Source: Pseudomonadota bacterium
GTDB lineage: Bacteria > Bdellovibrionota > FAC87 > UBA2466
DNA: 14,325 nucleotides
Reading direction: 5' to 3'
Assembly (NCBI GenBank): GCA_043767805.1
Contig: JAYUGC010000067.1
Location: 1-14,325, forward strand
Part shown: positions 1-14,325 of the stretch, piece by piece
How positions within the stretch are numbered: the stretch's first letter is position 1
Layout: each line of letters begins with the position of its first letter
Notes under the pieces: generated by a model
What the model was told of the DNA's origin: nothing
Database searches by the model: none
What the model saw: only the letters and a program-made list of their open reading frames with translations
Translations under genes and position numbers: made by a program

Positions 1-84
1 GGCGCAGCCGCCGCTCCCACTAGAAGACATATTTAAAATGGGTTTTCGGATCCGAATCCCCCAAACCAAATTTACTCTTATGAC

Positions 85-270
85 GGGAGCGTAATTTCGA
101 ACTCCTCACAGAGTTCGTCTGATGAGGCGGGCCGGCACAAAAAGCACCTCGATCAAGTAGGCTCGAACTTCGAAAGACAAAGTAAGCTGACCCTCCTCTA
201 CCCGCGAAACGGCACCAGTGTCGGAAGGCACGCGCTCCCTATGTGGCTCGATCTTGCCGCTTTTATTTTT
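85..270 (+). ncRNA. Candidate structured non-coding RNA with hammerhead-ribozyme-like core elements (family unassigned)
   Basis: Not covered by any ORF in the supplied track. Closing helix GGGAGCGT(85-92)/GCGCTCCC(232-239). Hairpin CGAACTC/GAGTTCG (98-117). CTGATGA at 119-125. Helix GCGGG(127-131)/CCCGC(201-205) followed by GAAAC(206-210). GNRA hairpin GTGTC-GGAA-GGCAC (218-231). A -10-like TACTCT lies at 73-78 and a terminator-like hairpin plus U tract at 243-270. Confidence 0.5.
243..270 (+). terminator. Putative intrinsic terminator ending the candidate ncRNA
   Basis: GTGGC(243-247)-8 nt loop-GCCGC(256-260), followed by TTTTATTTTT. The stem is short (5 bp with one G-U). Confidence 0.45.
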
Positions 271-304
271 GACGCCTTTGCGAGCCGCCGCGCGCGAAAA
301 CTAA

Positions 305-373
305 TTCTGAGATTTAACGTGGGCTAATTTCGCTTAATTTGCCGTCAGACGCACGCTTCTGAATTAAACGTGG
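305..373 (+). repeat. Imperfect direct repeat pair upstream of the HNH gene
   Basis: TTCTGAGATTTAACGTGG (305-322) and TTCTGA-ATTAAACGTGG (357-373); 16 of 18 aligned positions identical, separated by 34 nt. Confidence 0.6.
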
Positions 374-452
374 ATGTGGTTTGCGATGACCGGCGCCGAT
401 CGGCCAGGGCCCGTCCCGCGTGCCCGAAATTTCCCATGCTAAAAATATTTTC

Positions 453-1304
453 ATGAAAGACCTAAGCCAATTCAAAGACGAAGAGATTCTCACCCAAACC
501 AAAACGCTCATTGCGACAGAAAGGAGAGCTCACGCGGAGTTCTTGATCTATCTCGCGGAAGTCGATGCACGAAAGCTCTATCTCCCCGAAGGCTATAGCT
601 CGCTGTTTAGCTTTTGTACCGGTGCGCTTGGATTATCCGAAGCTTCCGCTTCGAAGCGCATTCAGCTTGCGCGATGTTCGATTAAGTTCCCAGTCGTCCT
701 CGGGCATATTGCTCGCAATGAACTGACTCTGAGCAATGCTTCCCTTCTGGCACCTGCTCTTACTCAAGATAATCACGAGGCCCTTCTGGGCGCGGCACTT
801 CATAAGCCAAAACGCACCGTCGAAAAAATGATGGCGACGCACTTTCCGAAGCCCGATGCGCCTGAGAAGATTAAGCCCCTCAGCGCAACTCGGACGAAGT
901 TTGAGTTTTCGGCTGATGATGAGGTAGCTGCGATGTTTCGCACTTTGCAGGATCGGTTGCGGCGTAAATTTCCCGAGGGGCGCATGGAAGATATTGTGCG
1001 TGAATCGTTCCGGCTTCTTGTGGAGCAGACTAATCCCGCGCGTGAACCCTCTCGGAAAGTGACGCCTCGCCCGGTGAAGCACACCCGCCGTTCCCCGGCG
1101 AATGTAACCCGTGCGGTGTGGAAGAAAGACGGGGAGCGCTGCACCTTTGTTTCCGCGAGCGGGAAACAATGTGAAGGCACCGCCTTCTTAGAGCTCGACC
1201 ACGTCATCCCCTGGAGTCTTGGCGGTAGTTCTCAAGATGCGGCTAATTTTACCGTTCGTTGCCGAGCGCATAATGCGTGGCGAGGAGGAGCGATTAGGGC
1301 GTAG
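453..1304 (+). CDS. HNH endonuclease with DUF222/13E12-like helical N-terminal region
   Basis: C-terminal VWKKDGERCTFVSASGKQC...LELDHVIPWSLGG...N....CRAHN is a Zn-binding HNH motif. N-terminal GYSSLFSFC...LGLSEASASKRIQLAR..FP is typical of this family. ATG at 453 is preferred; in-frame GTG at 420 is the alternative. Confidence 0.85.
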   Translation: MKDLSQFKDEEILTQTKTLIATERRAHAEFLIYLAEVDARKLYLPEGYSSLFSFCTGALGLSEASASKRIQLARCSIKFPVVLGHIARNELTLSNASLLAPALTQDNHEALLGAALHKPKRTVEKMMATHFPKPDAPEKIKPLSATRTKFEFSADDEVAAMFRTLQDRLRRKFPEGRMEDIVRESFRLLVEQTNPAREPSRKVTPRPVKHTRRSPANVTRAVWKKDGERCTFVSASGKQCEGTAFLELDHVIPWSLGGSSQDAANFTVRCRAHNAWRGGAIRA

Positions 1305-1389
1305 GCACATAGAATCGCGACGCGGCTGGCCGGAGCGGCATGACAGCGAGCGTCTCCTCACGTAATATAGAATCTCACCCTCAAAGCCA

Positions 1390-2430
1390 TTGGCGCCCCC
1401 CTCTTCAAATAAGCTCAGAGTCCTGCTCCTGAGCCATCCGGACCTAGTTCCGCCTCAGGAGGCGAATAGCGCAAAGAGTAAGAACGCGCCTTGGAGCGCC
1501 GAGTTCGACGTCATGAAGGCGCTCTCGACGCTCGGGCACGAGACCCGGATTCTCGGCGTTTACGATACGGTGGACGAGCTCCGGCGCTGCCTGGAGGAAT
1601 GGCGGCCACAAATCGTTTTTAATTTGCTCGAAGAGTTCGACGGCATCGCGACCTTCGATCAAAACATCGTTTCGTTTCTGGAGCTCGCGCGTGTGCCTTA
1701 CACCGGCTGCAATCCCAGGGGCTTGATGCTCGCTCGTCAAAAGGGACTCGCCAAAATGGTGCTCGCGCATCAGGGGATCAAAACTCCCGAGTTCGAGGTG
1801 TACCCCAAAGGCCAGTACGTGCGCGCGCCCGATGACTTCCGCCATCCCTGGTTCGTGAAATCGCTCACGGAAGAGGCGAGCCTCGGCATCTCTCAGGATT
1901 CCATCGTGCGGACGCCGAAGGCTTTCGTGGAGCGCATCCGCTTCATTCACACGAAAGTGGGAACCGACGCCCTGGCCGAGCGTTACATTCATGGACGCGA
2001 GCTTTATGTGGGACTCGTCGGCAATCAGCGTCCGGAAGCGTTTCCCATTTGGGAGCTGAAATTCCGGAAGATGCCGAAAGACTTGCCCCGCATCGCGACC
2101 CGCCGGGTGAAGTTCGATCTCGAGTACCAAAAAAAGTACGGCATCACTTCGGGCCCGGCCATGGGCCTCGACGACATCAGCGTCCGCCGGATCCACTTAC
2201 TTTCAAAGCGCATCTTCTCCGCCTTGGGCCTGAACGGGTATGGCCGCATGGACTTACGGCTCACGGAAGAAGGAGAGCTCTACTTCCTGGAAGCCAATCC
2301 CAACCCGCATATTGGCCGGGAAGAAGACTTCGCCCAATCCGCCCTCAAGGCGGCAATCAGCTACCCCGCCTTGGTCGATCGCATCCTTAGACTCGGCCTA
2401 CGCTGGCAACCCCGTAGACTCGCGGCCTGA
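1390..2430 (+). CDS. D-alanine--D-alanine ligase-like ATP-grasp protein
   Basis: Motifs VFNLLE, VPYTGC, FVKS..EEASLGI, ERYIHGRE, GYGRMDLRL and YFLEANPNP (ATP-grasp ExN). The N-terminus differs from canonical Ddl. TTG start is uncertain. Confidence 0.85.
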   Translation: MAPPSSNKLRVLLLSHPDLVPPQEANSAKSKNAPWSAEFDVMKALSTLGHETRILGVYDTVDELRRCLEEWRPQIVFNLLEEFDGIATFDQNIVSFLELARVPYTGCNPRGLMLARQKGLAKMVLAHQGIKTPEFEVYPKGQYVRAPDDFRHPWFVKSLTEEASLGISQDSIVRTPKAFVERIRFIHTKVGTDALAERYIHGRELYVGLVGNQRPEAFPIWELKFRKMPKDLPRIATRRVKFDLEYQKKYGITSGPAMGLDDISVRRIHLLSKRIFSALGLNGYGRMDLRLTEEGELYFLEANPNPHIGREEDFAQSALKAAISYPALVDRILRLGLRWQPRRLAA

Positions 2431-2605
2431 GCTACTTTTCTCATCCCTTCGAAACTCCTCAGAAATCTCTCGTAGACTGCGGCGCGTCCCTCTGTAAAAG
2501 CCCAGGCGGCGATTTTCCTCCGTTCTCTCCAAGTCTTAAGGCACCCCTCCACTAGCCGTGCCCAAAATTTCGACGAATCACATAAGGTTCTCTAGCTTGA
2601 GTCGT

Positions 2606-2621
2606 TGGCCGGAGGCGTGCA
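2606..2621 (+). promoter_or_regulatory. Possible sigma54 (-24/-12) promoter
   Basis: TGGCCGGAGGCGTGCA has exact GG-N10-GC spacing, about 40 nt upstream of the GTG at 2660, with a GAGGGGGG RBS in between. Confidence 0.35.
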
Positions 2622-2659
2622 GTCTTCAGATCCGGGGATTTCTCTGAGGGGGGCTTTAG

Positions 2660-4189
2660 GTGAAACACTCCGCGACCGCATTATTCCGTGCTTTAGTCTG
2701 TATTGGCTTCACTCTAGGCTCATTCTCGTTCGCCGACACGGCGAGCGAGGACCATAGGCCCGACGAAGCGGTCGTCGAGGCGCCCGCCGCTCCGGTGAAA
2801 CCCGGCAAAGGGAGAAAGCCGAAATCCGCGACCACGGCGGGTACCGCTTCCACGAACGACAGGCCGAGCCAAGCCCAAGTCGATCAATGGGTGCGCCAGC
2901 TTCCCAAGGCCTTCGATAAAAAGTTTCGCGAAGAGTACCGAAAGTCCCTGCTTTCCGGCGGCGGATCCATCAACGTGGACGGCAGCGGAGAGGAGTCCGA
3001 GCCCAGGTCTTCCGATTCGGCGATTACCGTCGATTTAGGATCGGACGGGGAAAAGGCGGCGGCGCCCGAGACGATGCGCGAACGGCTCAAAGGTAGCTAC
3101 GTACTCGAAGTGCCTGGCGCCAACACCCGAATTGTTTTCGTGGAAAGACCACGCACGGACGGGCAATCGGTTTCGCCCGTCCCCAGTAAGAAGGACGAAA
3201 ACGGCGCGAACCAAAATAAAGTTCCGGTAAGCCAGGCTTCCGAGACGCCGGAAACCGAGGCGGGCTTGCCCACCATCATCAAGGCGAGATCGGCGAACGG
3301 TTCCAACTGGGACTTGCCCGCTCAGGCTCCCGCGGCGAAGTGGGACACCGCTCGCGCCGAAAGAGGATTTCGCGCGCTGGATACGTATCTGACCACGCCA
3401 CCTGCGTCCGCGGAAGCCGCGAGTCGCTCCGCCCCAAAAGCGGAAGGCGCCGCGAAAAAAGAAGCGAAAGAACAACCTTGGTCCGAGCAAATCGTTTATC
3501 TCGACGATGCCGAGGAAGGCCAAGAGCCCGCGGCGGGTGGCCGCTTGGCGGGACGCAGTCTCAATTCCGAAATGCGCCAGGCTTCATTCAACCGGAACGA
3601 GACCGATCTGGGCGCGATGGCAAAGGACACGTTGCAGTCATTAAAGCAACGGGCCGACCGGACGCCGCTCGCCGGCATTCTCGTAAACCTTTTGTTGATG
3701 CTCACGGGCTTCACGCTGCTTGCGCTCATGATGGCGAAACGCCGCCGGATCGCGACCGCGGGTTATCCGCCGACCGCGGTTCGAAACACCGCGGCCGTCG
3801 TGAGACAGGCTGAAGTCACGACCGAGATCGTGCCATTTACGCAGACCTATGAAGAGCCGCCTCGGCGGCCCAGCTCGCACTGGACCGAAGAAGAGGAAAC
3901 CGTCACCGACACGGCGGTGACCGCCGAGTCGAGTCTAAACGACGATATCCGCGTGGTTTTCGATCCGCGCCTCGGCCGCTGGGTCCTGAAACGCCAAGAC
4001 GAAGGCCGACTGAGCGCGGCGCTCGCGGAGCTCCAAGCCGGAACGGTGGTCCGGGGCACGGCGCTGGGCTCGACGACGCCCAACGCTCGCTACCGCTTAT
4101 CGGTCACCAATACCTGGATTCCCACGAATGAAGAGGAGCAGATCATCATCGCGGTGAAGGCTCATAATTTTCGGGCGGCTTCCCGGTAA
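2660..4189 (+). CDS. Hypothetical single-pass membrane protein with signal peptide and long low-complexity exported region
   Basis: 509-aa ORF with RBS. N-terminal signal-like MKHSATALFRALVCIGFTLGSFSFA, Ala/Pro/Glu/Ser-rich body, and TM segment LAGILVNLLLMLTGFTLLALMMA followed by KRRR. Confidence 0.7.
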   Translation: MKHSATALFRALVCIGFTLGSFSFADTASEDHRPDEAVVEAPAAPVKPGKGRKPKSATTAGTASTNDRPSQAQVDQWVRQLPKAFDKKFREEYRKSLLSGGGSINVDGSGEESEPRSSDSAITVDLGSDGEKAAAPETMRERLKGSYVLEVPGANTRIVFVERPRTDGQSVSPVPSKKDENGANQNKVPVSQASETPETEAGLPTIIKARSANGSNWDLPAQAPAAKWDTARAERGFRALDTYLTTPPASAEAASRSAPKAEGAAKKEAKEQPWSEQIVYLDDAEEGQEPAAGGRLAGRSLNSEMRQASFNRNETDLGAMAKDTLQSLKQRADRTPLAGILVNLLLMLTGFTLLALMMAKRRRIATAGYPPTAVRNTAAVVRQAEVTTEIVPFTQTYEEPPRRPSSHWTEEEETVTDTAVTAESSLNDDIRVVFDPRLGRWVLKRQDEGRLSAALAELQAGTVVRGTALGSTTPNARYRLSVTNTWIPTNEEEQIIIAVKAHNFRAASR

Positions 4190-10369: not shown

Positions 10370-10833
10370 AACTTCGCGCTCCTCGGTTTGCGATCCAGCG
10401 TCCAGTGGGCTTTGGCGCGGCAAACCACCTCGCCCGAAGCGTCTTTCACTTCGACGGGGACCTGAAACTCCAACCGCTTTTCGATCTTCGGAATCTCCAA
10501 GTGGCATTCCGAAGTGAGGGTTCCCCGCGCTTTTTTCACGAACTCGATCTCGAACTTGGTGACGATGCCGCGCTCCTCGTCGGAAAGGCCAGAGACGAGC
10601 GCCAGGCCGGAGCTAAGCTCCGCGAGATTCATGAGCGCGACGGCATGGACGCTCTTTAAGTGATTGCGCACGCCTTTGCGATCGGTGAGAGAAATCTTCG
10701 CGTGGCCGGGAGAGAGCTCCAGGACGGTGGCGCCGATGCTGCCGCTATAAGGCGCGAACCGGCCGACGAGACGGCTGAAGATGTGCCTTCCCCCGGGAAG
10801 AGGCGAAAGCCGCTGCCACCATTGCAAGATCAT
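10366..10833 (-). CDS. PaaI-like hotdog-fold thioesterase (DUF4442-type)
   Basis: APYSGSIG, RNHLKSVHAVALMNLAE, IEFVKKARGTL and V.D..G..V. The start overlaps the upstream stop (ATGA). Confidence 0.85.
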   Translation of the reverse strand: MILQWWQRLSPLPGGRHIFSRLVGRFAPYSGSIGATVLELSPGHAKISLTDRKGVRNHLKSVHAVALMNLAELSSGLALVSGLSDEERGIVTKFEIEFVKKARGTLTSECHLEIPKIEKRLEFQVPVEVKDASGEVVCRAKAHWTLDRKPRSAKF

Positions 10834-11657
10834 CGTTTGGCTCCTTGTCGGTACTCCAGGAATAAAGGATCCCGGTGCCGCTGAGGAACCGGATACCCCG
10901 AATACCCCGTTGCTTCAATCGCCAAAGCCAGCTCGCTGGCTTCCTCGTCGAAAAACCGCTTCAACGCCTTTAAGTCTTCCTGCACCTCGGCGCTTCGGGC
11001 CCGCGCGGCGCCGCTATCCAAGAGGCGCAAAGTCAGCGCTTCCAGGGCTTCGCGAGATTGGCCGCGAAAGAACTGCTCCCATAAAAAGGAAGCCTGGCCG
11101 GGCAGGCGGCGAAAACCAAAGAGGTAAGAGTGCGCCTGCTTCGGGCTGATGGAAAGGCACTGGGATTTGGAGAGCGGATTGGCCACGAACTTAAATAGAC
11201 GCATCAGGGAAAAGAAAGCTTCGCGGGCGATGTAGCGCGAACGAAACGCGCCGTGGAATTTAAATGGGAGAAACCCTTCGGGCGTCGTCGTCAGACAGAA
11301 AAAGAGATCGGCCTCCCGCTCGAAGAGGCCCACGAAGGGATAAAGAAACGGAAAAGCCCCGGCGATGTTCTTCGACGGGCTCAAGGATTGAATGAGGCGG
11401 ATCTCTTTGAGCGCGGCCTCGAGCTCGCTTTCGCAAACCTCGAACTCGATGCGAACCGCGGCCTCGACGATACTACGCGGCTTTTTCGTTTTCTTGATCC
11501 GCCGCGCGGTACGGTACTGGGAAAGCCGGCGGCGCAGATCCTTCGCCTTACCGACGTAGAGGAGCTTACCCGCCTCGTCGTAAAAACGGTAAACCCCGGG
11601 CGAGCGAGGGACCCCGGCCAGAAACTCCGCTCCGAATTTCCGATCGAACCGTTTCAA
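10830..11657 (-). CDS. Stand-alone GIY-YIG nuclease (UvrC N-terminal/Cho-like)
   Basis: P.SPGVYRFYD..G.LLYVGKAKDLRRRL.QY ... SELEAALKE..LI....P..N. Only 275 aa, with no UvrC C-terminal nuclease or HhH region. Confidence 0.85.
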   Translation of the reverse strand: MKRFDRKFGAEFLAGVPRSPGVYRFYDEAGKLLYVGKAKDLRRRLSQYRTARRIKKTKKPRSIVEAAVRIEFEVCESELEAALKEIRLIQSLSPSKNIAGAFPFLYPFVGLFEREADLFFCLTTTPEGFLPFKFHGAFRSRYIAREAFFSLMRLFKFVANPLSKSQCLSISPKQAHSYLFGFRRLPGQASFLWEQFFRGQSREALEALTLRLLDSGAARARSAEVQEDLKALKRFFDEEASELALAIEATGYSGYPVPQRHRDPLFLEYRQGAKR

Positions 11658-14227: not shown

Positions 14228-14325
14228 ATTGGGTAGGAGGGGGGCTCACGCCCCCCGTCCTCCCACACCACCGTACGTACGGTTCCGTATACGGCGGTTC
14301 ATGTCCGAATTAAGTTTGAGCTGCT
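14228..14325 (-). mobile_element. 3' end of a group IIC intron (domains V and VI); the rest lies beyond the right edge
   Basis: Minus strand reads GAACCGCCGTATACGGAACCGTACGTACGGTGGT. Domain V is 14267-14298 with the CGC triad and GAAC loop. Domain VI follows as GT-GGGAGGAC-GGGGGGC-GTGA-GCCCCCC-TCCT-A-CCC-AAT, with the bulged branch A at 14234 and terminal AY at 14228. Confidence 0.93.

Follow-up and report, generated by a model that had tools for sequence, protein, structure and literature searches.

The HNH element and its copies

The DNA analyzed here, termed the window, comprises positions 1 to 14,325 of contig JAYUGC010000067.1 (GenBank assembly GCA_043767805.1; C67 below), one of 204 contigs of a 4.5-Mb genome designated G000. 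The host is a member of the Pseudobdellovibrionaceae (Bdellovibrionota) and a relative of the predatory Bdellovibrio bacteria. Positions 1-1304 of the window are the right-hand 1.3 kb of a repeated element of ~1.5 kb, in which a gene for an HNH nuclease follows a modular leader. An initial annotation had read this region as a structured RNA, a direct-repeat pair and an HNH gene forming a possible RNA-associated mobile or nuclease module; the upstream region, the repeats and the gene are indeed co-oriented within 1.2 kb. Genomes named individually in the comparisons are the congener G001 and four others (G002, G005, G010 and G015). The features of the element are listed below, where R1 denotes a sequence-only covariance model of the ~185-nt unit found in the leader (cut-off, E up to 1e-3).

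1..21, minus strand: head of the left, outward-facing ~185-nt unit, matched on the opposite strand by nhmmer and by R1; the remainder lies on contig C181 (20847-21027)
40..61, no strand: central palindrome with a GGATCC core at 49-54, an inverted repeat between the two unit heads
82..267, plus strand: right ~185-nt unit, the annotated 'RNA' (R1, 101.7 bits; nhmmer, 78-261)
103..128, plus strand: hypervariable part of the unit, with a distinct sequence in each of the four close copies
215..230, plus strand: near-invariant 16-mer (family consensus CCAGCGTCGGAAGGCA; window copy CCAGTGTCGGAAGGCA)
243..270, plus strand: terminator-like hairpin (243-260) with a T run, situated past the unit; the other three copies do not preserve its stem
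305..322, plus strand: direct repeat 1, TTCTGAGATTTAACGTGG, a candidate operator or binding site
357..373, plus strand: direct repeat 2, TTCTGAATTAAACGTGG, starting 52 nt after the start of repeat 1 and lying 80 nt 5' of the ATG
453..1304 (open reading frame (ORF) 420-1304), plus strand: HNH nuclease gene, 283 amino acids; on the right, the repeated element ends at the stop codon of this gene

The HNH gene is genuine. Translation most likely starts at ATG 453, matching the paralogues. The window protein itself matches the Pfam HNH model weakly (E 0.0086; 16.6 bits against a cut-off of 21.4), and 25 of 26 aligned homologues match it as well (best E 8e-9). The alignment shows invariant or near-invariant residues at C230, C240, H250, N265, C270, H273 and N274. 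Membership of the HNH superfamily thus rests on the Pfam matches of the homologues, this conserved His/Asn/Cys set and the structural matches described below. The gene uses more A/T-ending codons than the adjoining ATP-grasp gene, as the initial annotation had noticed (GC content at third codon positions, 0.556 versus 0.741), and is richer in A/T at these positions than six other neighbors too (0.63-0.71). A first search returned 408 homologues at E up to 1e-3, of which few have a name, always either HNH endonuclease or McrA; several received the latter name from JGI. Of 41 related genomes, 25 carry the family, one of them with as many as 36 matches. Scanning a genome collection with a nine-sequence protein alignment yielded ten loci, nine of them from the congener, while a scan of metagenomes for relatives with the single HNH protein gave 99 pattern matches and no confirmed ones.

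Three full copies of the element exist in the genome, on C67, C62 and C102, with about 88% nucleotide and 94-95% amino acid identity. BLASTN with positions 1-1500 aligned the second at 88.2% (C62:23607-24912) and the third at 87.3%, and also recovered decayed copies, internally deleted on C160, C126 and C189 and partial on C75. In all three full copies, the right boundary is the HNH stop codon, after which the flanks diverge. The left boundary lies ~270 nt 5' of the window start within the tail of C181, whose last 91 nt overlap window positions 1-91 with 100% identity. The element ends showed neither terminal inverted repeats nor target duplications.

Both orthologous sites in the congener lack the element. 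At the window-orthologous locus (G001:C14, about 40730-40780), the flanking genes are nearly adjacent, and the C62-orthologous locus holds an IS200-type Y1 gene in its place. Among sequencing runs, four DNA runs of one study contain window 1-3000, and no RNA run was listed for it. The contigs of these DNA runs revealed no empty site, only known paralogue joints and right-end loose ends; the paralogue joints recur in contigs from three metagenome runs. Comparison of the HNH gene copies revealed strong purifying selection (dN/dS 0.046-0.069 at dS 0.47-0.60). The leader (1-452) differs by 9-14%, versus 35-41% at synonymous sites, or about one third of the synonymous divergence. Gene and leader are, therefore, both under constraint.

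Several observations concern the outer boundaries. On C181, the left end lies near a CCCCGGGG palindrome that is split there by the two ends of another insertion sequence (IS) starting CTCATCATTGATCACTTATCGC, which together form a 71-nt near-perfect palindrome (C181:20784-20854). At four other contig ends (listed besides C181 are C126, C69, C170, C123 and C135), IS ends of this type adjoin comparable CCCCGGGG-type sites, which suggests that this IS is site-specific. The core of the boundary palindrome, TCCCCGGGGA, occurs ten times in the genome, against ~10 expected, and is not enriched genome-wide. G-run tracts (GGGGGTGGGTGGG and GGGTAGGGAGTGGGTAGGGG) mark the outer boundary of left units at C62:23445-23470, C26:20-45 and C181:20855-20880, the C26 tract being directly 3' of an HNH stop codon; at the matching place, G001:C18 (19600-19700) has long poly-C tracts and an assembly gap. 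On C126 (9200-9441), a 5'-truncated HNH copy begins directly after a GCGTTCCCCGGGGA palindrome. Because the HNH coding sequence contains a stretch resembling that palindrome (CCGTTCCCCGGCGAA, window 1079-1100), this truncation looks, from the sequences compared, like a recombination between the boundary palindrome and its look-alike inside the gene.

The ~185-nt unit and its gene partners

The region annotated as RNA is far from random sequence, being a member of a conserved repeat family. Since the leader profile also matches the opposite strand just upstream of it, 82-267 represents the right arm of a head-to-head inverted pair, the two arms of which are only about 65% alike. The ..TCGGATC.. 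core found between the arms also adjoins unit heads in G005 and, by eye, in Y1 leaders of G002.

R1 identified 39 units in 5 of 34 family genomes, and the neighbors of 38 were examined, one G005 match being left out. Half of these (19/38) have a co-oriented HNH homologue that starts within about 400 nt downstream, five of them truncated. Three are followed closely by a co-oriented IS200-type Y1 transposase gene, and the remaining 16 have neither gene, eight of them being outward arms of pairs. Orientation relative to the downstream gene is kept in all 22 gene-linked units. The HNH partners, spread over four genomes, belong to three lineages sharing 25-31% protein identity with each other. Within one clade, whose members are 31-38% identical in amino acid sequence, the unit is retained across three genomes from two genera. 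Given the divergent lineages and this retention across genera, the linkage between unit and HNH gene is real and old. The initial annotation had considered simple adjacency of an unrelated intergenic sequence and an HNH gene equally possible. Many HNH homologues do have other leaders, as such an origin would allow, but HNH genes make up a tiny genome fraction (for example, 13 matches in the 5.1-Mb G005), and against the recurrence of the pairing in half of the units, four genomes and three protein lineages, chance is an extremely improbable explanation that we reject.

The 16-mer within the unit is similarly restricted in distribution. Allowing up to one mismatch, a search of 61 related genomes found it in seven, with 12 sites in G000, six in G001 and nine in G005, while reversed-pattern controls returned none. 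Next to Y1 genes, the unit is positioned directly 5' of the transposase gene on C86, C26 and C151; the C86 gene is intact (Pfam Y1_Tnp, E 6e-5), whereas those on C26 and C151 are truncated. The same arrangement was found in G015.

HNH genes also exist without the unit. Neither R1 nor nhmmer detected it at the same-genome paralogues on C2, C57 and C182 (55-57% amino acid identity) or at eight HNH copies in G001 (47-54%), and these nearest relatives, the closest at 56% and 52%, have their own unrelated leaders of 115-270 nt. In G005, copies that are 95-98% identical at the nucleotide level occur both with and without it. Since the closest paralogues and near-identical G005 copies lack the unit, it is a separable module. 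The unit, in turn, occurs without an HNH gene, both 5' of Y1 genes and in solo inverted pairs that have no detectable gene (G001:C52 and C110). Both kinds of dissociation that the initial annotation had named as refuting a joint RNA-nuclease system are thus observed.

The unit-less G001 copies (L039-L046) constitute an element type of their own. Its left end is sharp (GTCATGCC..), its leader is ~270 nt long, and its 3' tail of ~110 nt contains a long GC hairpin and a variable loop. A GGGTCACATGCC motif echoes the left end; no target duplication was seen. The G005 unit is flanked by ~50-nt direct repeats, one of which is kept in unit-less copies, and the HNH copies of this genome have 5' ends at about -385, -350 and -205. 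Four of its loci (L131-L134; C7:226662, C4:455262, C7:198882 and C6:621167) carry near-identical HNH copies with varied 5' ends and a common 3' region. This 5'-truncation pattern could be informative on how copies are made.

Breakpoints cluster at the unit head: the C160 copy starts at 78 and the C126 copy breaks at 90, and the left edge of the annotated RNA (85) is a real module boundary (78-91). At the contig ends of C151, C160, C168 and C185, a hairpin-bearing flank is followed by three unit types beginning at the same nucleotide. Because its head is a precise junction point, the unit behaves like the end of a mobile element that inserts or recombines at a fixed site. The flank, which ends ..CCTACCTACA, is itself a repeated module of at least 85 nt containing a GC-rich hairpin with a GCAA loop. 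A similar hairpin with CCCTACA was seen by eye 3' of the C86 Y1 gene, and the flank module may be the right end of a Y1-type element.

These junctions can also be read in another way. The inverted pair might be an independent palindromic repeat similar to a miniature inverted-repeat transposable element (MITE) or a REPIN, itself mobile or acting as a landing pad beside which HNH and IS200-type genes insert at a fixed point, so that adjacency would reflect target choice. The solo pairs on G001:C52 and C110 fit this idea, as do a 387-nt inverted pair in G001 that is 93% identical at two loci and flipped relative to an HNH remnant, the shared starting nucleotide of three unit types after the hairpin-bearing flank, the insertion of another IS into the CCCCGGGG palindrome that bounds the left arm on its outer side, and the direct repeats around the G005 unit, of which unit-less copies have one. 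Against it, pair, spacer and gene form one block with the same ends in all three G000 copies, whose contexts are unrelated. Pair and gene are also missing together from both orthologous G001 sites, which makes one insertion per locus more parsimonious than two. Arms only ~65% alike are poorly suited to a hairpin-forming REPIN, and one HNH clade has retained the unit across two genera at 31-38% protein identity. We regard an independent repeat as the principal alternative, at perhaps half the likelihood of the composite element favored below.

RNA fold and protein architecture

The unit does contain a closing stem that pairs GGGAGCG at 85-91 with CGCTCCC near 233-240. The claim of a structured RNA was not borne out by the fold analyses. 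The minimum free energy of 60-300 was -71.3 kcal/mol versus -67.5 +/- 4.5 kcal/mol for shuffled sequences (z -0.85), and 39 of 200 shuffles folded as well. Searching positions 1-1500 against 4,227 Rfam families with cmscan gave no match at E up to 10, the HEARO omegaRNA included. RNAalifold predicted 47 pairs in four close copies, one of them compensatory. For 11 units, the consensus energy was -9.5 kcal/mol, and for 31 units from four genomes, it fell to -0.4 kcal/mol with two pairs. Scanning the same 31 units for stacked, mostly paired columns recovered just four 3-bp helices. In the variable 5' third, around 103-128, no significant structure was found in 22 units (z mostly -1 to +1). A conserved fold of the unit was thus not confirmed across homologues. 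On grounds of position and structure, we also rejected the hypervariable stretch as a guide, as it sits inside the repeat between conserved blocks and has no conserved hairpin.

Transcription of the unit as a small RNA or 5' leader, serving as scaffold or guide of the nuclease or as an antisense or cis regulator in the manner of omegaRNA-IscB or the IS200 tnpA leader, would nevertheless account for some of the data. Orientation is kept in every gene-linked unit, the leader is constrained, the window copy has a terminator-like site after the unit, and a hypervariable patch lies between conserved blocks. In a GUC-GGAA-GGC mini-hairpin, two substitutions (in G005 and C86 units) keep G-U pairs on this strand. 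IS200/IS605 elements are, moreover, described as carriers of the RNA-guided proteins IscB and TnpB in the accessible text of bioRxiv 10.1101/2023.03.14.532601. Yet the unit has no Rfam match, no significant fold and almost no consensus structure or covariation in 31 members; the mini-hairpin is broken in at least five weaker members, and the variable patch is internal to the repeat rather than at its edge. The closest paralogues and near-identical copies manage without the unit, the same unit serves a Y1 transposase, and G005 has, by eye, a good -35/-10-like site for the HNH gene downstream of it. As described next, the protein model is filled by DNA-binding-type domains and the HNH domain. 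We, therefore, consider an RNA function of this kind unlikely, and the role of partner, guide or scaffold proposed by the initial annotation finds no support in a unit that is separable and lacks a conserved fold.

An AlphaFold (AF2) model of the HNH protein, built from 26 sequences, reached a mean pLDDT of 89.2. With VIA-align, residues 22-135 align to the DNA-binding domains of ParB, KorB and Spo0J (6s6h, Z 7.3; 8qa8, Z 6.8; 1r71, Z 6.5; 1vz0, Z 6.5), residues ~145-201 to ribbon-helix-helix (RHH) proteins (Z 4.3-4.7) and residues 208-283 to the HNH domains of McrA, IscB, GVE2 and Gme (Z 6.1-7.5). The best C-terminal match is EcoKMcrA (Z 7.5), and the IscB HNH domain follows at Z 7.0 over 59 residues. 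Foldseek returned no match to the model at E up to 0.001; it aligned the Noc DNA-binding domain at TMt 0.60. By sequence, a PDB-level search matched solved structures to the HNH part and none to the rest of the protein. All the Z values, those of the HNH domain included, lie below the level of 8 advised by the tool, which makes the ParB/KorB-like and RHH-like assignments at the N-terminal side leads. Because the model shows ParB/KorB-like, RHH-like and HNH domains, the predicted architecture points to protein-guided DNA recognition. The initial annotation was right that this is not an IscB: the NCBIfam model NF040563 (guided_IscB) scored 15.8 bits against a cut-off of 175 and matched residues 218-274 only, IscB chains align solely across residues 216-282, and nothing in the model resembles RuvC, the PLMP part or the RNA-holding parts of IscB.

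Between unit and gene lies a spacer of ~185 nt that contains both direct repeats (17-18 nt). The pair is real: its degenerate pattern matched once, versus no match in any of 200 shuffles, and a 1-nt indel separates the second repeat from the first. Both also persist, little changed, in the three other copies of the element. Together with the boundary palindrome, they loosely resemble the parS and NBS consensus sequences given in the accessible text of PMC7383237, a likeness in sequence that we treat as a lead only.

Beyond the HNH stop codon, the window continues with the ATP-grasp gene, an HrpB-type helicase gene and further ordinary genes. A second nuclease-type gene is present at 10830-11657 on the minus strand, where an ORF encodes a GIY-YIG nuclease domain (Pfam E 4.2e-11). 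At 14228-14299, also on the minus strand, Rfam detected the domain V/VI tip of a group II intron (Intron_gpII, 49.5 bits, E 2.4e-7), whose body would extend past the window end. This tip was the sole match in a gathering-level Rfam scan of the whole window, and a tRNA/tmRNA search found none.

A proposed composite selfish element among known mobile systems

We judge the chances to be about even that the locus is a composite selfish element in which the unit works in cis as a separable module of DNA or leader, rather than a dedicated guide or scaffold RNA, and the nuclease is protein-guided. Such an element would consist of two ~185-nt units inverted head to head about a GGATCC-centered palindrome, a ~185-nt spacer with two 17-18-nt direct repeats and a small nuclease that, according to its model, finds DNA through its own ParB/KorB-like helix-turn-helix and RHH-like domains and cuts it with the HNH domain. 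The unit would function as DNA, serving either as a left end or landing site in mobilization, possibly by a Y1 transposase in trans, or as a promoter or regulatory region. The protein's own DNA-binding domains may use the direct repeats as operators, and the nuclease would promote spread or retention of the element. Of the module first proposed, the mobile and multicopy character and the link between an upstream element and HNH genes hold; its association with an RNA is unsupported.

Several points weigh against this composite element. No unit-like sequence was found by nhmmer or R1, in a sequence-level search, at or after 1200-1304. With no unit-like structure found at the stop codon, IS200/IS605-style mobilization in trans would have to proceed without a second end. 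Y1 homologues occur in 21 of 34 genomes, versus units in 5 of 34, and R1 run with filters off on the leaders of Y1 elements in G002 and G010 gave nonsignificant E values of 0.14-0.19; the unit is, therefore, not a general feature of the Y1 IS family. Although the proteins encoded next to it differ strongly (HNH lineages sharing 25-31% identity, and Y1), the 16-mer is near-invariant. A binding site for each element's own protein would not explain this invariance, which suggests instead a trans factor common to all. At Z values below 8, as for the ParB-like and RHH-like matches, the tool warns of a common helical arrangement. The alignments behind the structure tests were sequence-based, for which reason these tests are not exhaustive: indel-rich helices could be hidden. 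Lastly, the assembly is fragmented, with several contigs ending within repeats, and some junctions depend on it.

Among known systems, the REP13E12 DUF222-HNH genes of Mycobacterium are similarly dispersed in multiple copies; they, too, encode an N-terminal helical part followed by an HNH domain at the C-terminus, and they lack their own transposase. We know of no explanation of how REP13E12 spreads. The annotation of the window gene as DUF222/13E12-type found weak support: three of 26 homologues match DUF222 (PF02720) weakly at E up to 0.01 (best 1.3e-4), while the window protein has no Pfam DUF222 match at E up to 10. The present element further differs in its host phylum, Bdellovibrionota, and in a modular leader whose 185-nt pair is also found at IS200-type genes. 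In the accessible text of PMC10589994, REP13E12/HNH endonuclease/DUF222 forms a category of repetitive elements. The accessible parts of the literature on DUF222 with HNH, on Bdellovibrio HNH repeats and on REP13E12 gave no description of the element studied here.

Elements encoding IscB and its omegaRNA (HEARO) share with this locus an HNH gene behind a conserved non-coding element of a few hundred nucleotides and a selfish element linked to Y1. Here, however, there is no RuvC or PLMP part, no HEARO match and no conserved fold, and DNA-binding-type domains are predicted instead. Left ends of IS200/IS605 elements are comparable in that the unit lies directly 5' of a Y1 gene (C86 and G015), its heads are exact junctions beside hairpin sequence, and neither terminal inverted repeats nor target duplications were seen. 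They differ in that no matching right-end hairpin was found at the HNH stop codon, related subterminal hairpins were not found at both ends in a sequence-level search, Y1 elements of other genera lack the unit by R1, and this element contains no Y1 gene. IS200/IS605 ends, unlike the units, are not known to occur as inverted pairs. We also tried the unit as a general IS200-type left end and rejected it: its resemblance to the G002 leaders is by eye only, at R1 E values of 0.14-0.19.

REPINs, with their REP-associated tyrosine transposases (RAYTs), likewise combine inverted doublets of a repeat with a Y1 (HUH) transposase gene flanked by that sequence. REPs are far shorter than ~185 nt. The arms here have that length and are ~65% alike, the Y1 genes are multicopy in many family genomes (up to 14 matches) and most units are attached to HNH genes; a short hairpin-forming doublet with a single-copy RAYT was not found. 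Homing and McrA-type HNH enzymes are alike in being protein-guided, with separate DNA-binding domains, as the model suggests for the window protein, and EcoKMcrA is its best structural match. Copies of the present element, however, are surrounded by host genes that are unrelated from site to site and do not occupy a conserved target gene, a distribution that is not described by classical homing into a cognate allele.

In this element, a multicopy selfish HNH gene is preceded by a conserved module that also occurs at a transposase gene. To our knowledge, few dispersed selfish genes that lack a known way of moving are as common as DUF222-like HNH genes. At this locus, the HNH gene travels with a constrained modular leader, one module of the leader is shared with IS200-type genes, and the head of that module is an exact junction. 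Two handles on the mechanism follow, namely the protein that binds the invariant 16-mer and whether a Y1 transposase moves HNH cassettes. Removing the unsupported reading as a new RNA-guided HNH nuclease should, in addition, save effort in nuclease-mining screens. A bolder proposal, which we consider improbable at present, is that the unit is the shared left end of IS200/IS605-like cassettes in which a small, protein-guided HNH nuclease with ParB-like and RHH-like domains takes the place of the RNA-guided IscB or TnpB and biases inheritance, or that, in RNA or single-stranded DNA form, the unit serves as a new kind of cofactor linking HNH nucleases to Y1 mobility. If true, a shared left end or cofactor of this kind would provide a concrete, testable mechanism for the spread of DUF222-like HNH genes.

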